Source: a virus (lineage: Duplodnaviria; Heunggongvirae; Uroviricota; Caudoviricetes). Taken from it: a stretch of 36,013 nt of DNA. A program made the position numbers and the translations under genes. Below the pieces are notes generated by a model. The model saw nothing but the letters and a program-made list of their open reading frames with translations. It did not search any database and was not told the DNA's origin. Shown here one piece after another: positions 1 to 36,013 of this stretch. Every line of letters starts with the position of its first letter. The first letter of the stretch is position 1. The stretch lies in the IMG/VR virus record IMGVR_UViG_2648501802_000001. One strand, written 5' to 3'.

Positions 1-318
1 ATGAAAAAGATAGCTGCTATATCATTAATTAGTGTTTTTCTTATGTCTGGGTGTGCTGTACATAATGATGAGACAAGTATCGGTAAATTTGGTCTTGCAT
101 ATAAAAGTAATATTCAGCGTAAACTCGATAACCAATACTACACCGAAGCCGAAGCTTCTTTAGCCAGGGGCAGAATTTCTGGTGCAGAAAATATAGTAAA
201 AAATGATGCAGCTCATTTCTGTGTTACTCAGGGCAAAAAAATGCAGATAGTTGACCTGAAGACAGAAGGTGCAGGATTACATGGCGTCGCTCGTCTGACA
301 TTCAAATGTGGAGAGTGA
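1..318 (+). CDS. Small putative lipoprotein in the left flank (host side or older island)
   Basis: N-terminal signal peptide followed by lipobox-like LMSGC; AT-rich; lies outside the attL core. Possibly the yegR-position gene, but I do not recognise the sequence. Confidence 0.55.
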   Translation: MKKIAAISLISVFLMSGCAVHNDETSIGKFGLAYKSNIQRKLDNQYYTEAEASLARGRISGAENIVKNDAAHFCVTQGKKMQIVDLKTEGAGLHGVARLTFKCGE

Positions 319-474
319 GAATATTTTTTGGTAAGCGTCAAACATGCGCGTTCTGGTTGTGCGTAGCCGGAATCTGTACGAGCACGATGCCGTTACGTGA
401 AAGGCATCGTGCTATGAAGGGGGATTCTATCGATGTGGTCAATGGAAGACGGTGACCAGGATACGGCTTATGCA

Positions 475-502
475 TAAAAAATAAGCCCGTGTAAGGGAGA
501 TT
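475..502. repeat. attL core (copy of the cyaR 3' end / P2 att core)
   Basis: TAAAAAATAAGCCCGTGTAAGGGAGATT is identical to 34480-34507. Confidence 0.85.
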
Positions 503-581
503 TAGGGTGTCACCAGTAGGGGCTTTCAACGGTACAATGCGGGTTTGAGCGGCATAAATTACCACTGAAAGCCCTTAAACG

Positions 582-1595
582 TTACTCTACTGTGGACACT
601 GTGTGGACACTCTCGGCCTCAGTACCACCTCTTAGCGGATTAAGAGAAATGGCGTCCTGAAGGTACTCTGGCGCAAAATGAGCGTAAACCATAGTTTGTT
701 CAATCCGCGTGTGACCTAGTATCCGTTGTAGCGTGATAATACTTCCTCCATTAATCATGAAATGAGTGGCAAAGCTGTGCCTTAGTGCATGTGTGGCTTG
801 CCCCATTGGCAAATCCGGTTTTATTGCTTTCATTGTTCGTCTGAAGCGAGGGTAATCAGCATCAGGGAATAAAAAACCTCGTTTGTTATCCGCGATCATT
901 TTGGCAACAGCCTCTGAGATCGGGACGGTGCGTGGTTTGTTTGTTTTCGTTTTAACAAACGTGACGCGGTTATGGATGATATTTTCTGCTTTCAAACGAG
1001 CTGCTTCTCCCCAACGTGCTCCAGTACTCAGGCAAAGAATCGCAATCTTTTTATTGTCGCCGTCAAGAGCAGCAAGCAGTAAGGCAATTTCTTCCTGCGT
1101 GAGATAGCCTGTGTCTGGTTTTTCCTCCTTAAGCTTTTTTGTCCCTCTGATAGGGTGCTCACCAAAGAATAACTCCGCTTCAATCAGGGCTGTAAACATG
1201 CCGCTAATACATGTTAAATCACGATTGATACTCGAAGGTTTAATACCCTGACTTCTTCGGGTGGCGCAGTACTGGCTGATAAGCGATTTCGTAATTTGAA
1301 ATGCGCATGGGTCATTCGTTATTTTTGTGAAGATTTCAATTTTTCCAAGATTAGATTTCCCATGCTCTTCGTGTTTACCCTTTAAATCCCACCAGATCTG
1401 TGTCAGCTCCGACAGACGTCGCTTGTCTGTTGGTTTTGATAGCCATTCTTTATTGTGGTGGTTGTACAACGTGTATTTCTCGAAAGCGACAGCTTCGCTT
1501 TTCTTATCAAACTTCCTACGGATGCGTTTTCCATTACGTCCAGTAGGGCGGATGTCCACTTCATATCGACCATCATCGAGTTTTTTGATTGCCAT
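582..1595 (-). CDS. int: Tyrosine integrase (P2 Int-like)
   Basis: 337 aa starting MAIKKLDDGRYEVDIRPTGRNGKR; C-terminal HxxR...Y catalytic region (ATHALRHSFATHF...MVYAHF); directly adjacent to attL. Confidence 0.93.
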   Translation of the reverse strand: MAIKKLDDGRYEVDIRPTGRNGKRIRRKFDKKSEAVAFEKYTLYNHHNKEWLSKPTDKRRLSELTQIWWDLKGKHEEHGKSNLGKIEIFTKITNDPCAFQITKSLISQYCATRRSQGIKPSSINRDLTCISGMFTALIEAELFFGEHPIRGTKKLKEEKPDTGYLTQEEIALLLAALDGDNKKIAILCLSTGARWGEAARLKAENIIHNRVTFVKTKTNKPRTVPISEAVAKMIADNKRGFLFPDADYPRFRRTMKAIKPDLPMGQATHALRHSFATHFMINGGSIITLQRILGHTRIEQTMVYAHFAPEYLQDAISLNPLRGGTEAESVHTVSTVE

Positions 1596-4164: not shown

Positions 4165-6427
4165 AGCCTCCGGGCGTTTTGTCCCTCCGTCAGCATTTGC
4201 CGCAGGCACCGGTAAGACGTTTACCGGTGCTTATGCATGGAACGCGCCACGCGAGGCCGTCGGGCGCGAAAGACCCCTTACACGTGACGAGATGCGTCAG
4301 GTGCAAGGTGTTTTATCCACGATTAACCGCCTGCCTTACTTTTTGCGTTCGCTGTTTACTTCACGCTATGACTACATCCGGCGCAATAAAAGCCCGGTGC
4401 ACGGGTTTTATTTCCTCACATCCACTTTTCAGCGTCGTTTATGGCCGCGCATTGAGCGCGTGAATCAGCGCCATGAAATGAACACCGACGCGTCGTTGCT
4501 GTTTCTGGCAGAGCGTGACCACTATGCGCGCCTGCCTGGAATGAATGACAAGGAGCTGAAAAAGTTTGCCGCCCGTATCTCATCGCAGCTTTTCATGATG
4601 TATGAGGAACTCTGCGATGCATGGGGTGATGCGCATGGTGAAAAAGAATCGCTGTTTACGGATGAGGCGCAGGCTCACCTCTATGGTCATGTTGCTGGCG
4701 CTGCACGTGCTTTCAATATTTCCCCGCTCTACTGGAAAAAATACCGTAAAGGACAGATGACCACGAGGCAGGCATATTCTGCCATTGCCCGTCTGTTTAA
4801 CGATGAGTGGTGGATTAGTCAGCTTAAAGGCCAGCGTATGCGCTGGCATGAGGCGTTACTGATTGCTGTCGGGGAGGTCAATAAAGACCGTTCTCCTTAT
4901 GCCAGTAAACATGCCATTCGTGATGTGCGTGCGCGCCGCCAGGCAAATCTGGAATTTCTTAAATCGTGTGACCTTGAAAACAGGGAAACCGGCGAGCGCA
5001 TCGACCTTATCAGTAAGGTGATGGGCAGTATTTCTAATCCTGAAATTCGCCGGATGGAGCTGATGAACACCATTGCCGGTATTGAGCGTTACGCCGCCGC
5101 AGAGGGTGATGTGGGGATGTTTATCACGCTGACCGCGCCGTCAAAGTATCACCCGACACGTCAGGTCGGAAAAGGCGAAAGTAAAACCGTTCAGCTTAAT
5201 CACGGCTGGAACGATGAGGCATTTAATCCAAAGGATGCGCAGCGTTATCTCTGCCGTATCTGGAGCCTGATGCGCACGGCATTCAAGGATAATGATTTAC
5301 AGGTCTACGGTTTGCGAGTCGTCGAGCCACACCACGACGGAACGCCGCACTGGCATATGATGCTTTTTTGTCATCCACGCCAGCGTAACCAGATTATCGA
5401 AATCATGCGTCGCTATGCGCTCAAAGAGGATGGCGACGAAAGAGGAGCCGCGCGAAACCGTTTTCAGGCAAAACACCTTAACCGGGGCGGTGCTGCGGGA
5501 TATATCGCGAAATACATTTCAAAAAACATCGACGGCTATGCACTGGATGGTCAGCTCGATAACGACACCGGCAGGCCGCTGAAAGACACTGCAGCGGCTG
5601 TTACCGCATGGGCGTCAACGTGGCGCATTCCGCAATTTAAAACAGTTGGCCTGCCGACAATGGGGGCTTACCGTGAACTACGCAAATTGCCTCGCGGCGT
5701 CAGCATTGCTGATGAGTTTGACGAGCGCGTCGAGGCTGCACGCGCCGCCGCAGACAGTGGTGATTTTGCGTTGTATATCAGCGCGCAGGGTGGGGCAAAT
5801 GTCCCGCGCGATTGTCAGACTGTCAGGGTCGCCCGTAGCCCGTCGGATGACGTTAACGAGTATGAGGAAGAAGTCGAGAGAGTGGTCGGCATTTACGCGC
5901 CGCATCTCGGCGCGCGTCATATTCATATCACCAGAACGACGGACTGGCGCATTGTGCCGAAAGTTCCGGTCGTGGAGCCTTTGACTTTAAAAAGCGGCAT
6001 CGCCGCGCCTCGGAGTCCTGTCAATAACTGTGGAAAACTCACCGGTGGTGATACTTCGTTACCGGCTCCCACACCTTCTGAGCACGCCGCAGCAGTGCTT
6101 AATCTGGTAGATGACGGTGTTATCGAATGGAATGACCAGGAGGTCGTGAGGGCGCTCAGAGGTGCATTAAAACACGGTCTGAGAAGACCAAACCGTCAGC
6201 AAAGAAACGGAAGCCCGTTAAAACCGCATGAAATAGCGCCATCGGCCAGACTGACCCGGTCGGAACGAATGCAAATTACCCGTATCCGCGTTGACCTTGC
6301 TCAGAACGGTATCAGGCCGCAGCGATGGGAGCTTGAGGCGCTGGCGCGTGGTGCAATTGTGAACTATGGCGCAAAAGAATTTCATTACCATGTTCAGAAG
6401 GCGTGGGAAGCATTTTCGAGGTGGTAA
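4154..6427 (+). CDS. A: Replication initiation protein A (rolling-circle HUH endonuclease)
   Basis: HUH motif (TPHWHMMLF) and tyrosine motif (YIAKYISKNIDGY). The track ORF starts at TTG 4112; the first ATG is 4154. Confidence 0.93.
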   Translation: MDVKASGRFVPPSAFAAGTGKTFTGAYAWNAPREAVGRERPLTRDEMRQVQGVLSTINRLPYFLRSLFTSRYDYIRRNKSPVHGFYFLTSTFQRRLWPRIERVNQRHEMNTDASLLFLAERDHYARLPGMNDKELKKFAARISSQLFMMYEELCDAWGDAHGEKESLFTDEAQAHLYGHVAGAARAFNISPLYWKKYRKGQMTTRQAYSAIARLFNDEWWISQLKGQRMRWHEALLIAVGEVNKDRSPYASKHAIRDVRARRQANLEFLKSCDLENRETGERIDLISKVMGSISNPEIRRMELMNTIAGIERYAAAEGDVGMFITLTAPSKYHPTRQVGKGESKTVQLNHGWNDEAFNPKDAQRYLCRIWSLMRTAFKDNDLQVYGLRVVEPHHDGTPHWHMMLFCHPRQRNQIIEIMRRYALKEDGDERGAARNRFQAKHLNRGGAAGYIAKYISKNIDGYALDGQLDNDTGRPLKDTAAAVTAWASTWRIPQFKTVGLPTMGAYRELRKLPRGVSIADEFDERVEAARAAADSGDFALYISAQGGANVPRDCQTVRVARSPSDDVNEYEEEVERVVGIYAPHLGARHIHITRTTDWRIVPKVPVVEPLTLKSGIAAPRSPVNNCGKLTGGDTSLPAPTPSEHAAAVLNLVDDGVIEWNDQEVVRALRGALKHGLRRPNRQQRNGSPLKPHEIAPSARLTRSERMQITRIRVDLAQNGIRPQRWELEALARGAIVNYGAKEFHYHVQKAWEAFSRW

Positions 6428-6537
6428 TCTAAATATGAAAAATCTGCACACCGAAACACTCTTGTAGGTTGATAATTTGCAAACTAGGTGGATTTACTCT
6501 TTGATGTGTAAGAAGTTATACTACAAAAAATTGATTT

Positions 6538-7458
6538 ATGGGCTTGGCGATGTATAACGATCCTTATAGTGACCCAAAAGCGTGGGAATCATATTTCAAA
6601 AATATTGTTTGGCTACATTATAAGCCTGCTAACTGTTGTGACTTGCCAGATGAGCATGGAGGCGACTTTGGGCTGGAGTGTTACACTCTGAGTGGTCATG
6701 TTTTTCAGTGTTACTTGCCTGAGCAGTCGAGTGATATTGATAAGCTTTATAAAGCGCAACAAAAAAAGATTTATACTGATATAAAAAAGTTTTCTCAGGA
6801 TAACATTAAAGAATTAGAGGAGCTTTTTGGCACATTAAAAATTAGCCGCTGGATATTAGCTACACCATATAATAAATCGGCGAAATTAAGTCAATATTGC
6901 ACAAAAAAATCATTAAAAGTAAGAGAGTTAGGGATTTCTTACGTTGCTGATGATTTTCAAATAGTAGTGCAAACAGATCGAAATTATATAGAAGAAGCGT
7001 TCTTTCTTCGCAAAAATAACTATCAATTAAGCTTTAATATAAATGATGCGACGGCTGAGAATGCTGCTAACTTTATTAGTGAAAATACATCTTTTTTAGA
7101 TAAGCTAAATTTAAAATTACCTAAGATAAATGATGATGTATCTAGGCAGGGTTTATATAGAGAGTTTTTAATACAAAAATATCTTGATTATCAAAACTTG
7201 CTGGATGCTTTGAAGAGAGACTGGGTTGATATCTATGAAATTATCTATAACTGTGTTCAACATAGAGAACGTAATTTGGTAGGTCTCTTTCTTCTTACTT
7301 CATCAGATGCGAAACCATCAGATATAATGAAAGATGAAATCGCTTTGTTAAAGAAATGTATTGAAGAGGAAGTTAGTACGCTTAAACAGGCTGACTTGGA
7401 TAAGATAACATGGGGAGTTATTTCTGATTGGCTTATAAGATGCCCTTTAGATTTTTAG
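6538..7458 (+). CDS. Unknown 306-aa protein, first gene of hotspot operon (candidate effector, LmuA-like position)
   Basis: AT-rich ORF immediately after A; 1-nt gap to the next gene; no motif I can assign confidently. Confidence 0.7.
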   Translation: MGLAMYNDPYSDPKAWESYFKNIVWLHYKPANCCDLPDEHGGDFGLECYTLSGHVFQCYLPEQSSDIDKLYKAQQKKIYTDIKKFSQDNIKELEELFGTLKISRWILATPYNKSAKLSQYCTKKSLKVRELGISYVADDFQIVVQTDRNYIEEAFFLRKNNYQLSFNINDATAENAANFISENTSFLDKLNLKLPKINDDVSRQGLYREFLIQKYLDYQNLLDALKRDWVDIYEIIYNCVQHRERNLVGLFLLTSSDAKPSDIMKDEIALLKKCIEEEVSTLKQADLDKITWGVISDWLIRCPLDF

Positions 7459-7459
7459 A

Positions 7460-7936
7460 ATGGAAAAGCAAATGCATATAACGATAGATGAAATAATAGG
7501 AAGGCCGTTTACGTTTAATAAACGACCTGAACATTTGCCATGTGATATGAGACCATTGTGGCGTTGCAGTTTGTTGCTGATAATATTCCTTGTCACAGGG
7601 AGAGCTGGTTGCTGTTCTTTAAAAAAACTTCATTTAATTAATTGGATGTTAAAGTCAGAGAATAATGAAGCAATGTTTGAATTCTGGCTTTTAAACAAAG
7701 AAGGTTTAAAGCCTGAAGTAAGATTGGATCCAACTTTAGATAGAGCAATACAGCTATTATTAGCAGAGGATTTTATTTTGAGAAATGAACGAGCGTTCAA
7801 AATAAATGAAAAGGGGCTTAAGGTCGCTGAGAAATTGCTTTCTCTTGATGTGTTCAAAGAAGAAAGGTTGGTGCTAAATAAACATAAGGCTGGACTGTCC
7901 GAAACTAACATTAATAAAATATTTCAGGTGGGTTAA
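7460..7936 (+). CDS. Small 158-aa protein with winged-helix-like C-terminus (LmuC/kleisin-like position)
   Basis: Translationally coupled on both sides (1-nt gaps); AT-rich. Confidence 0.65.
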   Translation: MEKQMHITIDEIIGRPFTFNKRPEHLPCDMRPLWRCSLLLIIFLVTGRAGCCSLKKLHLINWMLKSENNEAMFEFWLLNKEGLKPEVRLDPTLDRAIQLLLAEDFILRNERAFKINEKGLKVAEKLLSLDVFKEERLVLNKHKAGLSETNINKIFQVG

Positions 7937-7937
7937 T

Positions 7938-9959
7938 ATGTCGTTGGAAATTATTTCATTGGAGTTAGTAGCAAATACTTCGGATGGGCGTTATGGTGTT
8001 AGTATACCTTTTTCAAATGGCTTGTTTTTATTAAGAGTTGAGAATTCTCATGGTAAATCAACTTGCATGAATGGGATTGCATATGCACTTGGGATGGAAA
8101 AGGCATTAGGTGTCGGTTCTGGAAAAATCCCATTCCCTCCATCTTTGACTAGAGCACTAACGACAAAAGATAATGTTGAAGTTAGTGTAATATCATCTTA
8201 TGTTTTGCTAAAAATAAAGAATCATAAGGGAATAGAAGCATCTTTGAAAAGGAATATTATCGGTCACGATAATAATAATGTTATTTATATAGATGAGAAG
8301 AATAATGTAAAAAGTAAGAGTGGTACTTATTTTTTACATAGAGAGGGCGATACTGAAAGGGAACGTGGTTTCTATAAGTGGTTAGCTGATTTTATAGGTT
8401 GGAGTTTGCCAAATGTTCCAAACCATAATGGGAAGGACACTATTCTTTATCCATCCGTACTTTTCCCTGCATGGTATGTTGAGCAAAAAAAAGGATGGTC
8501 GTCAATTATGGCGACTGTACCAACACAATTTGGAATTAAAGAGCCAAAGAAAAGAGCTCTAGAATTTTTAATGTCTCTTGATGTTAATGATAATATTTTA
8601 TTGCGTAGTTCGTTAAGAAATGAACTTGATATTATTTATCATGATTGGAAGTTAATTAAACACAATGCAGAAGTTATTGCTTCTAAATTGTCGTCAGTTG
8701 TCACAGGGATTCCTGAACAACCAGTGGCAAAATTTGATCATTATAAGATAGATTTGATTATTAAAAATGGTAGCGTCGTTAGATCTATTGTTGATGTTCG
8801 TAATGAACTGGAAAAAGAGTTGCAAGAAATTAAGTTTGACACTCTTGGTGAGCAAGAAGAACAAACTTTACAATTATCAGTGGTTAAGTTATTAGGTCAA
8901 AAAAATGATGAAATTAACTCTCTGGAATTAAAGATTAAAGAGATTTGTGAGCATAGAAGTTATATTCAATATCAAATTCAGGCGACCAAAAACAGATTGT
9001 ATAATCTGTTGGAAGATAAAAGGAAGTATGAAGATTTAAAGAAAATATCATCTTCGGATGCGTATAAGTCAACAGATTTAATGTCAAATATTTGTCCGAC
9101 TTGTGGTGCAAGTTATAATGATAATTTGCTAAGTTTTTCATCGCAAGAAAATCTGATGACATATGAAGATAGTTTGAACTTTATTAAAGAGCAAGTAAAA
9201 GCATTTGAGTTTGTTCTGTCGGATAGTGAAAAGCAATTAAAGCTTAAAGATGTTGAGAGGAGTGATTTAGAGGGGGAAATAGCCAAGATTAGAGTTGATA
9301 TTAATGCATTAAGGGAGTCAAAATATCCCTCAATGGTTGTTCAGGAGGAGTTTCTGAGACGTAAAATAAACATTGAGAATAAAATTAATGCCATTAACGA
9401 TGGCATTAAAAGTATATTGGACATTAGACTGGAGTTGGATTCATTACACCGTAGATATAAAAAGCTTATCGCGAAAAGAAAAGGGTTGCCAGATAATTTC
9501 TTGTCGCGTAATGATGCCGATAAGTTAAAATTTCTTAATAAAGAAGTCGTTGCACGATTAGAAAAATATAATTTTACAAGTTTTGATTCTAAACTTGTGT
9601 CAATATCAGAAGATAATTACTTACCTACTAGGGAAGGATATGATATAGGTTTTGACACATCAGCTAGTGATGGAATAAGAATCATTTGGGGTTATTTAAT
9701 AAGTTTATTTGTTGTTGGTTCTAAATTTCAAACAAATCACCCTGGATTGATTGTGTTTGATGAGCCTCGTCAACAAGAAGCAAATAAAGTAAGTTTTGCC
9801 GAGTTACTTAAAGATGCTGCAGAAACAACAAAAGGACAAGGGCAGATCATTTTTGCTACATCAGAAGATGAAAATGTCTTAAAAGAGGCATTAGAAGGGT
9901 ATGACTATACAATGATATCCTTTGATAAGAACAATGGGAAATTGTTGAGGAAATTATAA
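7938..9959 (+). CDS. SMC/Rad50-like ABC ATPase with coiled coil and CxxC zinc hook (LmuB-like)
   Basis: Walker A VENSHGKST (aa 35-42); long charged heptad-rich middle with CPTCG (aa 386-390); C-terminal Walker B GLIVFDEP. Confidence 0.8.
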   Translation: MSLEIISLELVANTSDGRYGVSIPFSNGLFLLRVENSHGKSTCMNGIAYALGMEKALGVGSGKIPFPPSLTRALTTKDNVEVSVISSYVLLKIKNHKGIEASLKRNIIGHDNNNVIYIDEKNNVKSKSGTYFLHREGDTERERGFYKWLADFIGWSLPNVPNHNGKDTILYPSVLFPAWYVEQKKGWSSIMATVPTQFGIKEPKKRALEFLMSLDVNDNILLRSSLRNELDIIYHDWKLIKHNAEVIASKLSSVVTGIPEQPVAKFDHYKIDLIIKNGSVVRSIVDVRNELEKELQEIKFDTLGEQEEQTLQLSVVKLLGQKNDEINSLELKIKEICEHRSYIQYQIQATKNRLYNLLEDKRKYEDLKKISSSDAYKSTDLMSNICPTCGASYNDNLLSFSSQENLMTYEDSLNFIKEQVKAFEFVLSDSEKQLKLKDVERSDLEGEIAKIRVDINALRESKYPSMVVQEEFLRRKINIENKINAINDGIKSILDIRLELDSLHRRYKKLIAKRKGLPDNFLSRNDADKLKFLNKEVVARLEKYNFTSFDSKLVSISEDNYLPTREGYDIGFDTSASDGIRIIWGYLISLFVVGSKFQTNHPGLIVFDEPRQQEANKVSFAELLKDAAETTKGQGQIIFATSEDENVLKEALEGYDYTMISFDKNNGKLLRKL

Positions 9960-23132: not shown

Positions 23133-23736
23133 TTCGCGCCTGCTGCCGACCGGCTCATCACCGCTTGAAGTCGCCGCCGCAAAAGCCTGTGCGGAAATTG
23201 AAAAAACGCCGGTCAGTATTCGTGAACTGTGGAACCCGGATACCTGCCAGGCAAATCTGCTGCCGTGGCTGGCGTGGTCATTTTCGGTTGACCGCTGGGA
23301 TGATAAGTGGCCGGAAGCGACAAAACGCGCTGTTATCCGCGATGCGTATTTCATTCACTGTCATAAAGGCACTATAGGTGCAATCCGGCGTGTGGTGGAG
23401 CCGCTCGGCTATCTGATTGAGGTGAGGGAGTGGTGGCAGCTCAACGAGGAGCCGGGGACGTTCCGTATCGTTGTTGGCGTGCTTGAGCAGGGTATTACCG
23501 AAGAAATGTATCAGGAGCTGGAGCGCCTCGTTGCTGATGCAAAACCGGCGAGCCGCCATCTGACGGGACTGGCTATCAGTTTAAGTACAACCGGCAACAT
23601 TTTTGCCGGTGCGGGATGCTATCACGGCGACGCCCTGACGGTTTATCCCTACACCCCGGAGGCCATTATTGTCGGAGGGGATTATTTCCCGGCCTCGGCC
23701 ATTCATTTAATTGATAACCTGAGAGTAAACGCATGA
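23125..23736 (+). CDS. I: Baseplate protein
   Basis: 203 aa, in the gpI position. Confidence 0.8.
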   Translation: MSDSRLLPTGSSPLEVAAAKACAEIEKTPVSIRELWNPDTCQANLLPWLAWSFSVDRWDDKWPEATKRAVIRDAYFIHCHKGTIGAIRRVVEPLGYLIEVREWWQLNEEPGTFRIVVGVLEQGITEEMYQELERLVADAKPASRHLTGLAISLSTTGNIFAGAGCYHGDALTVYPYTPEAIIVGGDYFPASAIHLIDNLRVNA

Positions 23737-24932
23737 CAGTGAAATACTACGCCATTCTGACTAATCAGGGCGCAGCACGGCTGGCTAACGCGACGATGCT
23801 CGGCAGTAAGCTGAATCTGACGCAAATGGCCGTTGGTGATGCGAATGGTGTCTTGCCGACACCAGACCCGGCACAGACAAAACTGATTAACCAGAAACGC
23901 ATCGCGCCGCTGAATCTTCTGAGTGTTGACCCGAACAACCAGAGCCAGATTATTGCGGAGCAAATCATCCCTGAGAACGAGGGCGGATTCTGGATCCGTG
24001 AGATTGGGCTTTATGATGATGAAGGCGTACTCATTGCGGTGGCGAACTGCCCGGAAACGTACAAACCGCAGTTGCAGGAAGGCAGTGGTCGTACCCAGAC
24101 TATCCGCATGATTCTGGTTGTCACGAATACCGAAGCTATCACGCTGAAAATCGACCCGTCGGTGGTACTGGCGACCCGTAAATACGTGGATGATGAAGTC
24201 CTGGAATTAAAGCTGTATGTGGATGACCAGATGAGAAACCACATTGCCGCACAGGATCCTCATACCCAGTATGCGCAGAAACATAATCCGACATTTACCG
24301 GAGAACCAAAAGCGCCGACGCCTGCCGCAGGAAATAACACCACGCGGATTGCGACCACTGAGTTTGTTCAGGCCGCTATTACCGCTCTGATTAACGGTGC
24401 GCCAGCCACACTGGACACACTGAAAGAAATTGCCGCGGCCATTAACAATGACCCGAAATTCAGCACCACCATTAACAATGCGCTGTCAGGTAAGCAGCCA
24501 CTGGATGAGACGCTGACTCATTTGAGTGGAAAGGATGTAGCTGGTCTTCTCGCATACCTTGGTTTGAGAGAAGCGGCAAAACGGGATGTGGGGACAGGGG
24601 AAAATCAGATACCGGACATGGCCTCTTTTGCCAGTGGTGATGGATGGATGAAATTACCCAACGGGAAAATCCTGCAATATGGTCGTGGTGCGGTTACGCC
24701 GACATTATCGACGCAAACAATGAGAATTACATTCAGCATCCCTTTCCCCAAAAAAGCGGACTGCGCCATGCTTACTCATTCTGGTGATGGCGGTGCGCCT
24801 TTAGGCGCTGGGCGAGGGTTCGTGATGACTGCAGAAGGCCCAACGTTAACCGGCTTTAATTCTGCTTACAGAACGTCATCAACCAGCGACACGGTATCGA
24901 TGAATTACAGTTGGTGGGCTGTTGGTGAGTAA
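23733..24932 (+). CDS. H: Tail fibre protein with exchangeable C-terminus
   Basis: 399 aa with conserved P2 gpH N-terminus (MTVKYYAILTNQGAARLANA...); an inversion crossover site lies inside the gene at about 24556. Confidence 0.85.
   Translation: MTVKYYAILTNQGAARLANATMLGSKLNLTQMAVGDANGVLPTPDPAQTKLINQKRIAPLNLLSVDPNNQSQIIAEQIIPENEGGFWIREIGLYDDEGVLIAVANCPETYKPQLQEGSGRTQTIRMILVVTNTEAITLKIDPSVVLATRKYVDDEVLELKLYVDDQMRNHIAAQDPHTQYAQKHNPTFTGEPKAPTPAAGNNTTRIATTEFVQAAITALINGAPATLDTLKEIAAAINNDPKFSTTINNALSGKQPLDETLTHLSGKDVAGLLAYLGLREAAKRDVGTGENQIPDMASFASGDGWMKLPNGKILQYGRGAVTPTLSTQTMRITFSIPFPKKADCAMLTHSGDGGAPLGAGRGFVMTAEGPTLTGFNSAYRTSSTSDTVSMNYSWWAVGE
24556..24572. repeat. Left inversion crossover site (hix/gix-like)
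   Basis: ACCTTGGTTTGAGAGAA; its inverted partner is at 26456-26472 with 2 mismatches; core resembles the hix ACCTTGGTTT. Confidence 0.6.
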
Positions 24933-24943
24933 TTTTATTCAGG

Positions 24944-25396
24944 GTGATTTATATGAACGAATATGTTTATAGCGCAAGGCATAATGCTTTTTTCCCTGTG
25001 GATATGATTGATAAATATAAATCAGAGGGATGGGATTTATCAGACGCTAAGGAAGTAAATCAAAATATTATCAGTGAGTTTATGGCTGAACCGCCACAAG
25101 GAAAAATCCGTATTGCCGGAGATGATGGGCTGCCTGCGTGGGCAGATATTCCTCCACCCACGCATGAAGAGCTTATTGAAATTACTGAATCAGAAAGACA
25201 GCTACTAATTAACCAGGCCAACGAATACATGAACAGTAAGCAATGGCCCGGTAAAGCCGCTATTGGTCGTCTGAAAGGTGAGGAACTGGCGCAATATAAT
25301 TTGTGGCTGGATTATCTGGATGCACTGGAGCTGGTTGATACCTCCAGTGCACCAGATATTGAATGGCCTACGCCTCCGGCAGTTCAGGCCAGATGA
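24944..25396 (+). CDS. Tail fibre assembly chaperone (gpG/Tfa-like)
   Basis: 150 aa immediately after H; conserved Tfa-type C-terminus. Confidence 0.75.
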   Translation: MIYMNEYVYSARHNAFFPVDMIDKYKSEGWDLSDAKEVNQNIISEFMAEPPQGKIRIAGDDGLPAWADIPPPTHEELIEITESERQLLINQANEYMNSKQWPGKAAIGRLKGEELAQYNLWLDYLDALELVDTSSAPDIEWPTPPAVQAR

Positions 25397-25970
25397 CATC
25401 CGGCGCGGTGCTGGTATCTGTTGCCGTCACCGCGTCAATGTAATCCAGCACAGCGTTAAGCCGGGTTGTTTCTGCCTGCGTCAGTTTACGTCCGGCCTGC
25501 AATTTCAGTTGAATCAGACTGATGGAAGCCATTGCAGTATCAATCAGCGACTGGCGCTGTGCTTCTGCTGCATCTACTGCGGCGCTATGCTGTGCCTCGG
25601 TATCCGTCACCCATTTCTCACCATCCCATTTATCATATGGCGTTAATGGGGCGATAGTGGTTGTATTTTCAGGGTAATCACCCGGAGCGGTGATTTCTTT
25701 TGATTCTCCTGTTTCGGTGCTATAGACCGTTTCACCGCGATGGTCTGGCACATATTCCCATGAGTTAAAATCTGCAGAACGGCAGATTGCATAACCAGCC
25801 TTATGTGTGCCAGGGGCATCTAAACAGGAACATGCCGGAATGCCGACACCAACGGCAAGATATTCATTTGAAGTGGAAATATATTCCCGTGTTTCACCAT
25901 CATAGTTATAAACGGTAACATCCCCTGCCTTTGTTGCAATGAGCTCACTATTTAATATTGCTTTATGCAT
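25368..25970 (-). CDS. Alternative tail fibre assembly chaperone (Tfa') in the invertible segment
   Basis: 200 aa, convergent with the forward Tfa; start overlaps the stop of the alternative fibre segment (ATGA). Confidence 0.7.
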   Translation of the reverse strand: MHKAILNSELIATKAGDVTVYNYDGETREYISTSNEYLAVGVGIPACSCLDAPGTHKAGYAICRSADFNSWEYVPDHRGETVYSTETGESKEITAPGDYPENTTTIAPLTPYDKWDGEKWVTDTEAQHSAAVDAAEAQRQSLIDTAMASISLIQLKLQAGRKLTQAETTRLNAVLDYIDAVTATDTSTAPDVIWPELPEA

Positions 25971-26464
25971 CAGGCTGCCCTCACGATATAGTTAAATGCA
26001 ATATTACGCGGACGCGTTTCTGAGGCTGCGGCACCTAAACCAGCCACTGATTGTTTATATGTTTTAAAGGTTCCATAATCCGGTGCTGGTAATCCAGCAT
26101 CGTTTGTGTTTCCTCTTTTGATAATGTCAGTGCCACTATTTACCCAGCTTTCATCAAAATAGAAATTAATCGTTGCATCAGTCACAATCGTGGATCTTGA
26201 CGGTAATCCATGAGCATGATCCTCCGTTGCATACCCCTGAATACTTAAAATAGAGCGACCTGTATCAATCCCCCGCCCGTCATCCCAGCCACGAATAAAC
26301 TCACCACGTAAATCAGGCAATTTATTTGTCGGGTAAGCCTTTGCCAGTTCCGGGTATTCTTCAGCCGAAAAAGCAGCCCCGTTGCATTTCAGCCAGCCTG
26401 TTGGCGGCGTAGCTGAAGGCCAAGGAACTGGTATGCCAACAGGCAACGCAGAACCTTCTCCCAA
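25970..26464 (-). CDS. Promoterless alternative tail fibre C-terminal segment (H')
   Basis: Fibre-tip-like sequence on the minus strand with no ATG start (the track M is a TTG); reading frame stays open up to the right crossover site. Confidence 0.6.
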   Translation of the reverse strand: MGEGSALPVGIPVPWPSATPPTGWLKCNGAAFSAEEYPELAKAYPTNKLPDLRGEFIRGWDDGRGIDTGRSILSIQGYATEDHAHGLPSRSTIVTDATINFYFDESWVNSGTDIIKRGNTNDAGLPAPDYGTFKTYKQSVAGLGAAASETRPRNIAFNYIVRAA

Positions 26465-26472
26465 ACCAACGT
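26456..26472. repeat. Right inversion crossover site (hix/gix-like)
   Basis: TTCTCCCAAACCAACGT, inverted repeat of 24556-24572. Confidence 0.6.
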
Positions 26473-26607
26473 TTTATGGAATCGGTTAAATATGATGTTG
26501 AAAGAAGGGAGTGTCCTAGTATTGATTGTTAGATAAAAATGGAAAGTGCTGATTGTAACGGTATATTTTAAGATGGTAACACCAAATGGTGCTACCATCT
26601 TTATTAG

Positions 26608-26925
26608 TTATCTGTTCCTTCTGAGGATTCCGCTACTCCCTTGTGTTGTAGGGTTTAATTTTTTCCAATAATGATAACCTTGTGATGTAATCCTTAGAGA
26701 GGCAGTATCTACACTCCATCCATCAATACTTTCAGGAGAACCATCGAAGATTACCTTTCCTGTAAGATACCCATCGTCATGCAGAAAGGCGATATATCCA
26801 TAAACTTCTTTTAAATCACCAATTTCATTGACTAGGCGTTCCCACGCTTGAACAGTGATTCTCTCTGGATAGGCTTCGACAAAATATTTCAGTGTGGTAG
26901 TTTTTTTATTGGTATCGATGTTCAT
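26608..26925 (-). CDS. Orphan 105-aa hypothetical protein in the Z/fun hotspot position
   Basis: ATG with AAGGA RBS; AT-rich; divergent from the invertase gene. Confidence 0.6.
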   Translation of the reverse strand: MNIDTNKKTTTLKYFVEAYPERITVQAWERLVNEIGDLKEVYGYIAFLHDDGYLTGKVIFDGSPESIDGWSVDTASLRITSQGYHYWKKLNPTTQGSSGILRRNR

Positions 26926-27123
26926 CAGATTTTCCTTTTATTGAGGTCAACCTATCTTACCATACTTATTTGTTTCACATGGGAATGCTAAGTGGGCTAT
27001 GTATCCACTATCAGTAAATATTCTTATCCAGCAAGATTACTGTAACTGAGAGCTCCATAGCCTTGTCCGCTTGTACATATATAGATAATTCTGTGTCATT
27101 ATTCTGTTTTTATAGGGATTTTT

Positions 27124-27717
27124 ATGCGTATAGGTTATGTTCGTGTATCAACAAATGACCAGAACACGGAATTGCAGCGTAACGCGCTCGAGTGCGCAGG
27201 ATGTGAGCTGATTTTTGAGGATAAAATCAGCGGCACGAAGTCCGACCGACCGGGGCTGAAAAAACTGCTCAGAACATTATCAGCAGGTGACACTCTGGTA
27301 GTCTGGAAGCTGGACAGGCTGGGGCGTAGTATGCGGCATCTGGTCATTCTGGTTGAGGAACTGCGCGAACGCGGCATTAATTTTCGCAGCCTGACAGATG
27401 CTATTGATACCAGCACGCCGATGGGGCGTTTTTTCTTTCATGTGATGGGTGCCCTGGCTGAAATGGAACGAGAACTCATTGTCGAACGGACTCGGGCCGG
27501 GCTGGAAGCGGCCAGAGCCAAAGGTCGTATTGGTGGCAGACGTCCTAAACTCACCACGAGTGAGTGGGAGCAGGTCGGGCGTTTGCTGGCTGCAGGGGAG
27601 TCACGTCAACGCGTGGCACTGATTTTTGATATTGGCCTGTCCACGCTCTATAAAAAATTTCCCTCATCAGCGATAAAGAATAAATTGTGTCATCCCTTAG
27701 CCAACCGGGACAAATAG
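27124..27717 (+). CDS. Serine DNA invertase (Hin/Gin/Pin/Cin family)
   Basis: MRIGYVRVSTNDQ... with catalytic Ser region; LVVWKLDRLGRS; C-terminal HTH. Confidence 0.9.
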   Translation: MRIGYVRVSTNDQNTELQRNALECAGCELIFEDKISGTKSDRPGLKKLLRTLSAGDTLVVWKLDRLGRSMRHLVILVEELRERGINFRSLTDAIDTSTPMGRFFFHVMGALAEMERELIVERTRAGLEAARAKGRIGGRRPKLTTSEWEQVGRLLAAGESRQRVALIFDIGLSTLYKKFPSSAIKNKLCHPLANRDK

Positions 27718-34160: not shown

Positions 34161-34379
34161 ATGTTTCATTGTCCTTTATGCCAGCATGCCGCACATGCGC
34201 GTACAAGTCGCTATATCACTGACACGACAAAAGAGCGTTATCACCAGTGTCAGAACGTGAATTGCAGCGCCACGTTCATCACTTATGAGTCGGTACAGCG
34301 ATACATCGTGAAGCCGGGAGAAGTCCACGCCGTAAGACCGCACCCGTTGCCGTCAGGGCAGCAAATTATGTGGATGTAA
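34161..34379 (+). CDS. ogr: Late transcription activator Ogr (zinc finger)
   Basis: 72 aa MFHCPLCQHAAHARTSRY...CQNVNCSATF with a Cys4 zinc-binding motif; the track ORF starts 21 codons upstream. Confidence 0.9.
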   Translation: MFHCPLCQHAAHARTSRYITDTTKERYHQCQNVNCSATFITYESVQRYIVKPGEVHAVRPHPLPSGQQIMWM

Positions 34380-34391
34380 TTACAAACAGAA

Positions 34392-34416
34392 AGCCCCTCA
34401 GTTGAGGGGCTTTTTT
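34392..34416 (+). terminator. Rho-independent terminator after ogr
   Basis: AGCCCCTC-AGTT-GAGGGGCT hairpin followed by T6. Confidence 0.75.
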
Positions 34417-34479
34417 GTCGATGTGGTCAATATGTGGACGTGACCAGAAATAAATCCTTTTATTTCAATTTGTTGTGCG

Positions 34480-34507
34480 TAAAAAATAAGCCCGTGTAAG
34501 GGAGATT
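34480..34507. repeat. attR core (3' end of cyaR)
   Basis: Identical to 475-502. Confidence 0.85.
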
Positions 34508-34567
34508 ACACAGGCTAAGGAGGTGGTTCCTGGTACAGCTAGCATTTTATGGGTTATGTTTTTCAGC
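34481..34567 (-). ncRNA. cyaR: CyaR (RyeE) Hfq-dependent sRNA
   Basis: Reverse complement reads GCTGAAAAACATAACCCATAAAATGCTAGCTGTACCAGGAACCACCTCCTTAGCCTGTGTAATCTCCCTTACACGGGCTTATTTTTT, which matches CyaR as I recall it; a CRP-like half-site (TCACA) lies upstream on the minus strand. Confidence 0.85.
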
Positions 34568-34651
34568 GAAACGGATGATAACCTTAATAAATGCAGCTGT
34601 ATGTGATCGGTTTCTAAGAATTTTCCATCCGGGAAAAATAATCGAAATTAA

Positions 34652-36013
34652 TCACTTACCGTGGGGGTTACGCGTGGTTTCCCCGGAGAAATTACGCATC
34701 AGCAGCGCGTAATTTAGCTCAAGATCCTGCGGCACCGGGATCCACACAGTATAACCATCGCCTGGTGCGACCGGCATAGCTTCACCTTTGGCGTTTTCCA
34801 TATGCTCAAGGGTAAAGTTAATGTTGCCTTGCGGCGTCATCAGCTCAAGGCTGTCGCCAACGGAGAATTTATTTTTCACCGCTACCGCCGCGAGGTCGCC
34901 CTTGCGCTCACCGGTAAACTCACCAACAAACTGCTGGCGGTCAGAAACTGAATAACCGTATTCGTAGTTCTGATAATCGTCGTGAGTATGACGACGCAGG
35001 AAACCTTCGGTATAGCCACGATGCGCCAGACCTTCCAGAGTTTCCAGCAGGCTGGTATCGAATGGTTTTCCCGCAGCTGCGTCATCGATAGCTTTACGGT
35101 AAACCTGCGCGGTGCGTGCGCAATAGTAGAAAGATTTGGTACGGCCTTCGATTTTCAGCGAATGCACTCCCATTTTGGTCAGGCGTTCTACATGGGCGAT
35201 GGCGCGCAGATCTTTCGAGTTCATGATGTAAGTGCCGTGCTCATCTTCAAACGCGGTCATATACTCGCCCGGACGCTGGGCCTCTTCGATCATAAACACT
35301 TTGTCGGTTGGTGCGCCGATACCCAGCGTCGGCTCAACATTTTGCACCGGAATCGGCTCGTACTTGTGTACGATGTTGCCAACGTCATCTTCTTTCCCTT
35401 CCTGGACGTTGTACTCCCAGCGGCAGGCGTTGGTGCAGGTGCCCTGGTTCGGGTCGCGCTTGTTGATATAGCCAGAGAGCAGGCAGCGACCGGAGTAGGC
35501 CATGCACAGAGCGCCGTGAACGAAGATTTCGATCTCCATATTTGGCACCTGATTGCGGATCTCTTCAATCTCTTCCAGCGACAGCTCGCGAGAGAGGATC
35601 ACGCGGGTCAGGCCCATTTGCTGCCAGAATTTCACCGTCGCCCAGTTCACGGCGTTAGCCTGTACCGAGAGATGGATCGGCATTTCAGGGAAGTGCTCAC
35701 GCACCAGCATAATCAGCCCTGGATCGGACATAATCAGCGCATCCGGCCCCATTTCCACCACCGGTTTCAGGTCACGGATAAAGGTTTTCAGCTTGGCGTT
35801 GTGCGGTGCAATGTTGACCACTACATAAAACTTTTTCCCCAGCGCGTGGGCTTCATTGATGCCGAGCTGAAGATTTTCGTGGTTGAATTCGTTGTTGCGC
35901 ACACGCAGGGAGTAACGCGGCTGGCCCGCATAAACAGCATCTGCGCCATAAGCGAAAGCGTAACGCATATTTTTCAGCGTTCCCGCCGGGGAAAGGAGTT
36001 CCGGTTTAAACAT
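34652..36013 (-). CDS. yegQ: Peptidase U32 family protein YegQ (host gene)
   Basis: 453 aa starting MFKPELLSPAGTLKNMRYAFAYGADAVYAG; GC-typical host gene downstream of cyaR, as at the K-12 yegQ-cyaR locus. Confidence 0.85.
   Translation of the reverse strand: MFKPELLSPAGTLKNMRYAFAYGADAVYAGQPRYSLRVRNNEFNHENLQLGINEAHALGKKFYVVVNIAPHNAKLKTFIRDLKPVVEMGPDALIMSDPGLIMLVREHFPEMPIHLSVQANAVNWATVKFWQQMGLTRVILSRELSLEEIEEIRNQVPNMEIEIFVHGALCMAYSGRCLLSGYINKRDPNQGTCTNACRWEYNVQEGKEDDVGNIVHKYEPIPVQNVEPTLGIGAPTDKVFMIEEAQRPGEYMTAFEDEHGTYIMNSKDLRAIAHVERLTKMGVHSLKIEGRTKSFYYCARTAQVYRKAIDDAAAGKPFDTSLLETLEGLAHRGYTEGFLRRHTHDDYQNYEYGYSVSDRQQFVGEFTGERKGDLAAVAVKNKFSVGDSLELMTPQGNINFTLEHMENAKGEAMPVAPGDGYTVWIPVPQDLELNYALLMRNFSGETTRNPHGK

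Follow-up and report, generated by a model that had tools for sequence, protein, structure and literature searches.

A probable decayed P2-type P arm beside the P2 attachment site at cyaR in Escherichia coli

The sequence on the host side of the left prophage junction described here is probably a decayed P2 P arm. It forms the right end of an approximately 0.8-kb insert carrying yegR, fixed in essentially all E. coli, and this insert is likely to be the scar of an ancient P2-type element. The attachment site (attB) that P2 uses in E. coli looks like the attR of that decayed element, reused by modern phages.

The resident prophage and its junctions at cyaR

The window, that is the whole stretch of 36,013 nucleotides that was analysed, contains in order yegR, 156 nt of host flank, a 28-bp core, a P2-type prophage, the same core, the rest of cyaR and yegQ. 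The spacing from core to core is 34,005 bp, and the prophage genes begin with int, the C repressor and cox and end with D and ogr, after which come the P arm and the attR core. Positions 1-520 match the genome of E. coli strain ST2747 at 100%. The features of the prophage, its junctions and the flanking host genes are as follows.

1-318 (+): yegR, small lipoprotein gene (ORF; Pfam PF27694 YegR)
475-502 (+): attL core, a copy of the final ~24 nt of cyaR with the U-tract, displaced and without promoter
503-616 (+): P′ arm of the resident prophage, overlapping the 3′ end of int; coordinates carried over from the P2 record AF063097
about 519-592: putative Cox-binding region in the P′ arm, by homology to AF063097
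591-599 and 602-610: two putative Int arm-type repeats in the P′ arm, TGTGGACAC (mapped P2 Int P′-arm site 590-616)
582-1595 (-): int, P2-type tyrosine integrase (ORF; Int_N 9e-25, Phage_integrase 9e-22)
1711-2400: lysis-lysogeny switch, with the C repressor at 1711-2010 (-; HTH_3 1e-7) and cox at 2125-2400 (+; Phage_Cox 4.9e-47)
34161-34379 (+): ogr, late-gene activator and final prophage gene ahead of attR (Ogr_Delta 1.1e-21; homologous to P2 ogr)
34390-34482 (+): functional P arm of the resident prophage, mapped from AF063097, with a predicted ogr terminator (34390-34413), Int arm-type site (34418-34445) and IHF site (34449-34482)
34480-34507 (+): attR core, the phage-supplied 3′ end of the intact cyaR
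34484-34569 (-): cyaR (CyaR/RyeE sRNA), complete (Rfam RF00112)
34652-36013 (-): yegQ (trhP), host gene flanking cyaR (ORF and locus annotation)

The two cores are identical at 28 of 28 positions (33 of 35 when flanks are included, 468-502 against 34473-34507), and positions 476-502 are the counterpart of the 27-bp core given for attP in the P2 record. The model RF00112 matched 34484-34569 on the minus strand over its full length (model positions 1-85 of 85) with 100.7 bits against a gathering score of 47, and since the match spans this interval the core is the 3′ half of the CyaR terminator stem plus the U-tract. The initial annotation had placed the prophage in the 3′ end of cyaR with a duplicated core, and had described the 28 bp at 34480-34507 as the 3′ terminus of cyaR, its terminator, repeated at 475-502; both statements are borne out by these results. 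The tyrosine integrase would have recombined the attP core with the identical 27/28-bp sequence that is the 3′ terminator of cyaR. Because the phage supplies its own copy of the terminator, CyaR remains whole at attR, and what stays behind at attL is the old copy without a promoter.

The interval 429-510 is attL (B-O-P′) of a 34,005-bp prophage of P2 type (Peduovirus). The core is identical at both prophage ends, the tyrosine integrase adjoins the P′ arm and ogr adjoins the P arm. Homology to annotated P2 sites predicts that each arm has arm-type repeats (tgTGGaCa) as a direct pair and that the P arm also has an IHF site. The repeats of P2-type phages follow the consensus tgTGGaCa, and the Int arm sites of P2 are paired direct repeats (PMC3448106). 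In AF063097 the order is ogr terminator, ′Int, P arm′ site (TCGATGTGGTCAATGTGTGGACGTGACC), IHF site and attP core, with the Cox and P′ Int sites on the int side, and window positions 34380-34507 are 96.9% identical to P2. Both junctions were aligned to P2 and to the empty site of strain C21. The left part of attL and the right part of attR together rebuild the C21 site, the left part of attR rebuilds P2 attP with the 96.9% identity given above, and the right part of attL appears by eye to be the same as the P′ side of P2.

The junction itself, integration at cyaR, is already known. The integration site at the cyaR terminator is the P2 attB called locI, and work on CyaR has remarked on its overlap with the 3′ end of the gene. 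It is a classical result that P2 inserts at locI through a core of 27 bp, and the D′-ogr remnant of K-12 is equally classical, both reportedly going back to Yu et al. in 1989 and to Barreiro and Haggard-Ljungquist in 1992.

The resident prophage also carries cargo. After the replication gene, at 6538-9959 (+), lies a three-gene Lamassu defence system (LmuA 1.1e-29, LmuC 2.5e-23, LmuB 1.1e-98), for the three proteins of which a Pfam search gave no match; its location is presumably the tin/old cargo position of P2. A tail-fibre gene and a tail-fibre assembly gene at 23733-25396 (+) are followed by an inverted second tail-fibre set on the minus strand (assembly protein at 25368-25970, collar-domain fragment at 25970-26464) and then by a serine recombinase at 27124-27717 (Resolvase 4e-52 and HTH_7). 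The stretch 23733-27717 looks like a putative invertible host-range segment of the Gin/Cin type, the inverted repeats found at it being weak ones only. P2 itself is not known to have an invertible tail-fibre segment.

The host-side arm sequence and its variation

The initial annotation had noticed that a 13-mer and a nearby motif left of the attL core recur left of the attR core. This recurrence holds on computation: CGATGTGGTCAAT at 431-443 is found again at 34419-34431 and GTGACCAG at 452-459 at 34440-34447, the two standing to the left of either core in unchanged order and orientation. Without gaps, 415-459 and 34403-34447 are 71% identical, and from the terminator remnant to the core the B arm and the P arm are 75-77% identical over ungapped columns. 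When the cores were excluded, the left flanks (149 nt at attL, 93 nt at attR) gave a local alignment score of 33 as against 14.6 +/- 2.2 for dinucleotide shuffles, none of 2000 of which reached 33 (z = 8.4). The offset between the motif copies is 33988 and that between the cores 34005, a difference of 17 bp by which the host-side copy is shorter between motif and core, and this difference points to an indel in that interval. The parts of the host-side sequence are read as follows.

381-413: stem-loop with an 11-bp stem, an 11-nt loop and no U-tract, between yegR and the arm fossil
415-474 (+): host-side (B) arm of attL, read as a P2-type P-arm fossil
415-430: terminator-like remnant
432-443: putative intact Int arm-type repeat, GATGTGGTCAAT
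444-453: degenerate second repeat
452-459: GTGACCAG
460-474: IHF region, mostly deleted

The match to the Int P-arm site of AF063097 supports the further proposal that the shared motif belongs to the P arm of the phage at attR and stands on the host side of the core at attL. By this comparison the motif consists of the predicted first of two direct P-arm repeats and the tail of that site; in the fossil the second repeat has degenerated (GGAAGACGG versus ATGTGGACG). Immediately left of the arm repeat is a second core-like stretch, ATGAAGGGAGATT (15/27), which is ambiguous between a remnant of the ogr terminator and another relic of the core. The hairpin at 381-413 folds with -21.1 kcal/mol (z = -3.8; 0/200 shuffles fold as well) and occupies the place of the ogr terminator of P2 in a MAFFT alignment; no terminator-like site was called at it. 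Its exact 3′ stem arm was present in 78 of the 92 loci checked.

The host-side sequence is a property of the species. Of 5426 complete E. coli genomes, 5416 have a match to window positions 1-520, with at least 80% of this stretch covered in 5380, and the unoccupied site of strain C21 (yegR, flank, core, cyaR and yegQ, with no prophage) has the motif right beside the core. Variation was examined in 12 diverse E. coli genomes and 80 IMG/VR junctions, of which 76 had both landmarks. A 28-nt block that includes the arm repeat, TCTATCGATGTGGTCAATGGAAGACGGT, was invariant in all 76; the following ~35 nt varied in 54% of alignment columns, indel columns counted. Three ′long′ E. coli alleles have 12 extra nucleotides that align with the IHF region of P2 (ATCAATCCGTATTTACA versus ATAAATCCTTTTATTTCAA), so that the IHF region is shortened by 4-5 bp in these and by 17 bp in the window. 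Since the long alleles extend into the IHF region, the common short form, the window included, appears to be a further deletion of a once complete arm.

Some junctions depart from this pattern in other ways. Four E. coli junctions by yegR in IMG/VR have only the first 22 nt of the core (AAAAAATAAGCCCGTGTAAGGG), followed by an unrelated arm beginning CGTTTTT, and a different element with a shorter core appears, by its sequence, to use the same cyaR site. E. coli CCUG 73778 has an extra AT-rich insertion of ~170 bp (1024-1195 of that locus) just past the yegR stop codon, and its core (about 1346-1372 of the locus) reads GCCTGTG for GCCCGTG, a change that puts a U-A pair where the stem of the CyaR terminator otherwise has a U-G wobble. 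In E. coli FDAARGOS_1077 ~300 bp comprising most of yegR are deleted, and the degenerate old core and the P-arm fossil are both retained.

The bacterial side of P2 integration needs the core alone (PMC3448106), and the fossil is therefore not required for integration. With a single predicted intact repeat, a degenerate second one, an IHF region that is shortened and mostly deleted, and variable sequence between repeat and core, the arm does not have the make-up of a functional Int arm-type site and is most likely inert today. One may nevertheless speculate that the relic has been kept because it works, the intact host-side repeat recruiting the N-terminal domain of P2 Int and so having favoured this attB or modulated excision from attL, a proposal that is compatible with a fossil origin. 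It would agree with the invariance of TCTATCGATGTGGTCAATGGAAGACGGT beside its highly variable neighbour and with locI being the strongly preferred site of P2 in E. coli C. Against this, the 40-nt segment that holds the block is variable in 3 of 40 columns (7.5%), which is no lower than yegR (5.3%) or the adjacent hairpin segment (6.3%). An Int arm site in P2 consists of two direct repeats (PMC3448106); here the second of the pair has degenerated. The IHF site for bending the arm to the core is deleted, and perfect identity of the core would already explain the use of the site. A working relic is therefore unlikely in our view. Equally doubtful is the wider proposal that P2-family integrases still bind the host-side repeat, which would bias site choice or prophage stability, and that the last ~20 nt of CyaR together with yegR are legacies of the ancient element.

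Relatives, the yegR insert and the integration history

A scan with a CyaR pattern, one genome per species, gave at least 120 loci; with two E. coli loci fetched earlier, 122 were classified, nearly all of them from distinct Enterobacteriaceae species. For 65 of the 122, the start of yegS lies 92-162 bp beyond the search pattern within cyaR, compared with 908 bp in E. coli. A conserved promoter-like flank is common to these 65 direct cyaR-yegS loci, and the arm motif is missing from them. Motif and insert are absent from the ancestral unoccupied arrangement in relatives. Escherichia sp. E1V33, whose YegQ is 99.3% identical to that of the window, is among them and is, among the matches listed, the one Escherichia outgroup with the virgin cyaR-yegS arrangement. 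Since cyaR abuts yegS in E1V33 and the other outgroups without the motif, the empty site of E. coli is not the ancestral state. A megablast search for the virgin junction in E. coli, with the E1V33 sequence as query, found no E. coli genome with at least 80% coverage, a weak result since the query matched over its cyaR part only. In the alignment of E1V33 with C21 the flank is conserved up to GGATGAAAGTCGGAGGAT and is then followed by the core in E1V33 and by a degenerate core, AAAAAGTCAGTTCAAGTATGGAGGATT, in E. coli. The E. coli core differs at 2 positions from the cores of E1V33 and E. albertii and is identical to the attP core of P2.

Other variants of the interval were encountered in the same scan. 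The cyaR terminator of three Kluyvera loci is the 27-bp core of E. coli and P2 with a perfect stem. Eight Enterobacter species loci carry another insert between cyaR and yegS, which starts 643-652 nt past the pattern end instead of about 100 nt; in one of these (L096) the Enterobacter-type flank is paired with a YegQ that is 99.6% identical to the E. coli YegQ of the window.

Aberrant excision is a known route by which phages gain flanking DNA. The transfer could by this route have gone the opposite way, an ancestor of P2 having taken up E. coli flank by imprecise excision so that the P arm derives from the host B arm, and the two arms are clearly homologous. The distribution of the module (both repeats and the IHF site) does not fit, since it is common to P2-type phages with other cores and other hosts: phages Wphi and YpM46 have the same P-arm module with quite different cores, and in Citrobacter, Buttiauxella, Enterobacter and others it occurs in prophages adjoining cyaR, with cores matched to the terminators of the hosts. 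An arm module joined to differing cores argues for a phage feature and not for a captured E. coli flank. The degenerate copy is moreover the one in the host, and virgin sites are without the motif. We consider such a transfer very unlikely.

The presence of the motif in an empty site might also be taken to mean that ordinary host sequence resembles the phage arm by chance or convergence. This is more improbable still: the observed alignment score was not reached in 2000 shuffles, the order, orientation and spacing to the core are those of the phage, the long alleles carry the homology into the IHF region, and the 65 virgin-type loci lack the motif.

Decay of an ancient P2-type element is the reading that we favour, and the make-up of the insert as a whole agrees with it for the most part. 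yegR is the sole gene of the ~0.8-kb E. coli insert between yegS and cyaR, and among the loci listed only E. coli has yegR in this interval. The composition of the insert is atypical, with 39.9% GC as against 49.7% in yegS and 54.1% in yegQ. It consists, in order, of a degenerate core, P′-like sequence, a variable AT-rich spacer of ~190 nt, yegR, the hairpin, the P-arm fossil and the live core. At the left end AAAAAGTCAGTTCAAGTATGGAGGATT directly follows GGATGAAAGTCGGAGGAT and matches the core at 18 of 27 positions (fixed-register binomial probability 9e-5); nothing else in the 2976 nt upstream of the live core resembles the core so closely, the next best match having 15. The 35-110 nt after AAAAAGTCAGTTCAAGTATGGAGGATT resemble the P2 P′ arm (the score being reached in 19/3000 shuffles, or in 32/3000 over 110 nt). 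The insert is in this way bounded by direct repeats of the att core with attL/attR polarity, the left side being the weaker (P′ similarity p about 0.006-0.01). The degenerate old attL core is variable at 22% among present strains. A partial duplication of cyaR was considered for the left boundary and rejected, since similarity to the cyaR body was equalled in 931/3000 shuffles as against 19/3000 for the P′ arm.

No P2 gene remnant was found when the 0.9-kb yegS-cyaR interval was compared with the resident prophage by blastn-short/blastn and tblastx, which recovered only the arms and the core; residual phage genes are thus absent from the insert at this level of comparison. The phage origin is, as a consequence, carried by a P arm of ~60-75 nt, the degenerate core and weak P′ similarity (p about 0.01). 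As for yegR, it may have arrived with the element or could have entered the scar later. That it is phage cargo is not supported. The PHROGs match (phrog_21109, 2e-72) probably derives from E. coli prophage calls with host flank, and the occurrence of yegR in two phage records and 80 IMG/VR loci apparently reflects included host flank, in IMG/VR at the edges of the prophage calls. Distant homologues of YegR, at 44-82% identity, occur in chromosomal surroundings that are unrelated or are flanked by IS elements, and no YegR relative in the vegetative ogr-attP-int configuration was found among the relatives examined. One ′homologue′ at 88% probably comes from an E. coli assembly full of frameshifts.

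Enterobacter sp. BIDMC 29 and two Logan contigs carry a YegR homologue of 51% identity beside a gene for an MFS transporter, and in two of these three loci (L125 and L126) it is also flanked by IS transposase genes and near an omptin gene. An IS-flanked homologue suggests that the yegR family is mobile by routes other than phage.

P2-type elements have left independent scars at the same spot, namely the D′-ogrK remnant of K-12 (22/27 core) and a truncated P arm in E. albertii. K-12-like genomes have the flank with the fossil, a core that is cut after 19 nt and fused to a D fragment (D′, also called yegZ), ogrK, an intact P arm, the live core and cyaR, and the D′-ogrK remnant is a separate layer, later than the fossil. 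In E. albertii NBRC 107761 (4983-8003 of that locus) a P2-type P arm adjoins cyaR and breaks off within the Int arm site. Beyond it an apparent IS fragment and three cdtA/cdtB/cdtC-like ORFs were recognized by eye; this P2-type remnant apparently carries cytolethal distending toxin genes.

The motif had initially been interpreted as the remnant of an earlier P2-like integration, consistent with the ogrK remnant of K-12. The first part can be retained as a relic and not as a strain-level event, given the motif at the empty C21 site and in 5380 of 5426 genomes; that the empty site already holds the motif, which the initial annotation had named as a ground for rejecting its reading, is no obstacle to a relic, since the empty site of E. 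coli is not ancestral. The link to ogrK has to be given up, since K-12-like genomes have both the fossil and a separate D′-ogrK remnant with its own intact P arm. A recent relic, in which an earlier P2-like prophage or a K-12-type ogrK remnant left the arm and the present phage integrated beside it, would put the motif exactly where the arm of a former attR belongs and at a locus where K-12 does have a remnant, but it can hardly be maintained when the motif is found at unoccupied sites and in nearly every E. coli genome, when the window has no fragment of ogr or D to the left of attL and when K-12-like genomes have the fossil on top of the D′-ogrK remnant.

From these observations we infer the following history. 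In an ancestor of E. coli, a P2-type element would have inserted itself at the cyaR terminator and would then have decayed by internal deletion, losing almost everything. Its attL core, having no purpose, would have drifted, and its attR core would have been preserved because it is the CyaR terminator. The preserved attR would now serve as the attB of present-day P2 phages. The U-tract and probably the 3′ half of the terminator stem of E. coli CyaR would then descend from the ancient element.

Comparison with known systems

Our literature search found neither a P-arm fossil common to the species nor a yegR insert with att relics at its ends described before; prior mention in the primary papers on the P2 att sites is possible. 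The species-wide fossil is a modest new detail and an example of a prophage scar at an sRNA 3′-end hotspot, and the known picture of P2 integration is unchanged. A textbook ′bacterial′ attachment site, attB of P2 in E. coli, would be partly phage DNA, and a prophage scar would have been kept because it doubles as an sRNA terminator and then been reused by related phages. This reading also suggests an origin for the orphan gene yegR and for the E. coli-specific changes in the CyaR terminator. A single locus displays a series of decay stages, from the intact prophage through the K-12 remnant to the species-wide fossil. On the practical side, prophage-boundary callers routinely overshoot into yegR at the cyaR locus, and comparisons with an ′empty site′ within a species can miss older insertions.

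At the sdsR/ryeB locus of Salmonella, elements target the 3′ end of an sRNA and foreign DNA has accumulated repeatedly (PMC3333887). As in this kind of targeting of tRNA, tmRNA and sRNA 3′ ends, the core is located in the 3′ terminator of an sRNA and is restored by the phage. Here the target is CyaR, and the layers can be read as an ancient scar, a K-12 remnant and an intact prophage.

The D′-ogrK remnant of K-12 resembles the fossil in being a decayed P2-type prophage at the cyaR terminator in which the attR end and the live core were kept. It differs in retaining ogr, a D fragment, an intact P arm and a truncated attL core (22/27) and in being restricted to some strains, whereas the fossil has no phage gene, a broken arm and an attL core of 18/27, is species-wide and lies to the left of, i.e. 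outside, the ogrK remnant in K-12-like genomes.

The closest comparison is the attP/attB system of P2 itself, in which Int, IHF and Cox act on P-O-P′. The P arm and core of the window are 96.9% identical to it with the same 27-bp core, the gene order of ogr, P arm, core, P′ arm and int is common to both, and the repeats fit tgTGGaCa. The machinery is the same and the cargo of the window prophage differs, consisting of the Lamassu system and the putative invertible tail-fibre segment. What is added here to the known P2 recombination is that the bacterial partner site probably has a phage-arm ancestry of its own.
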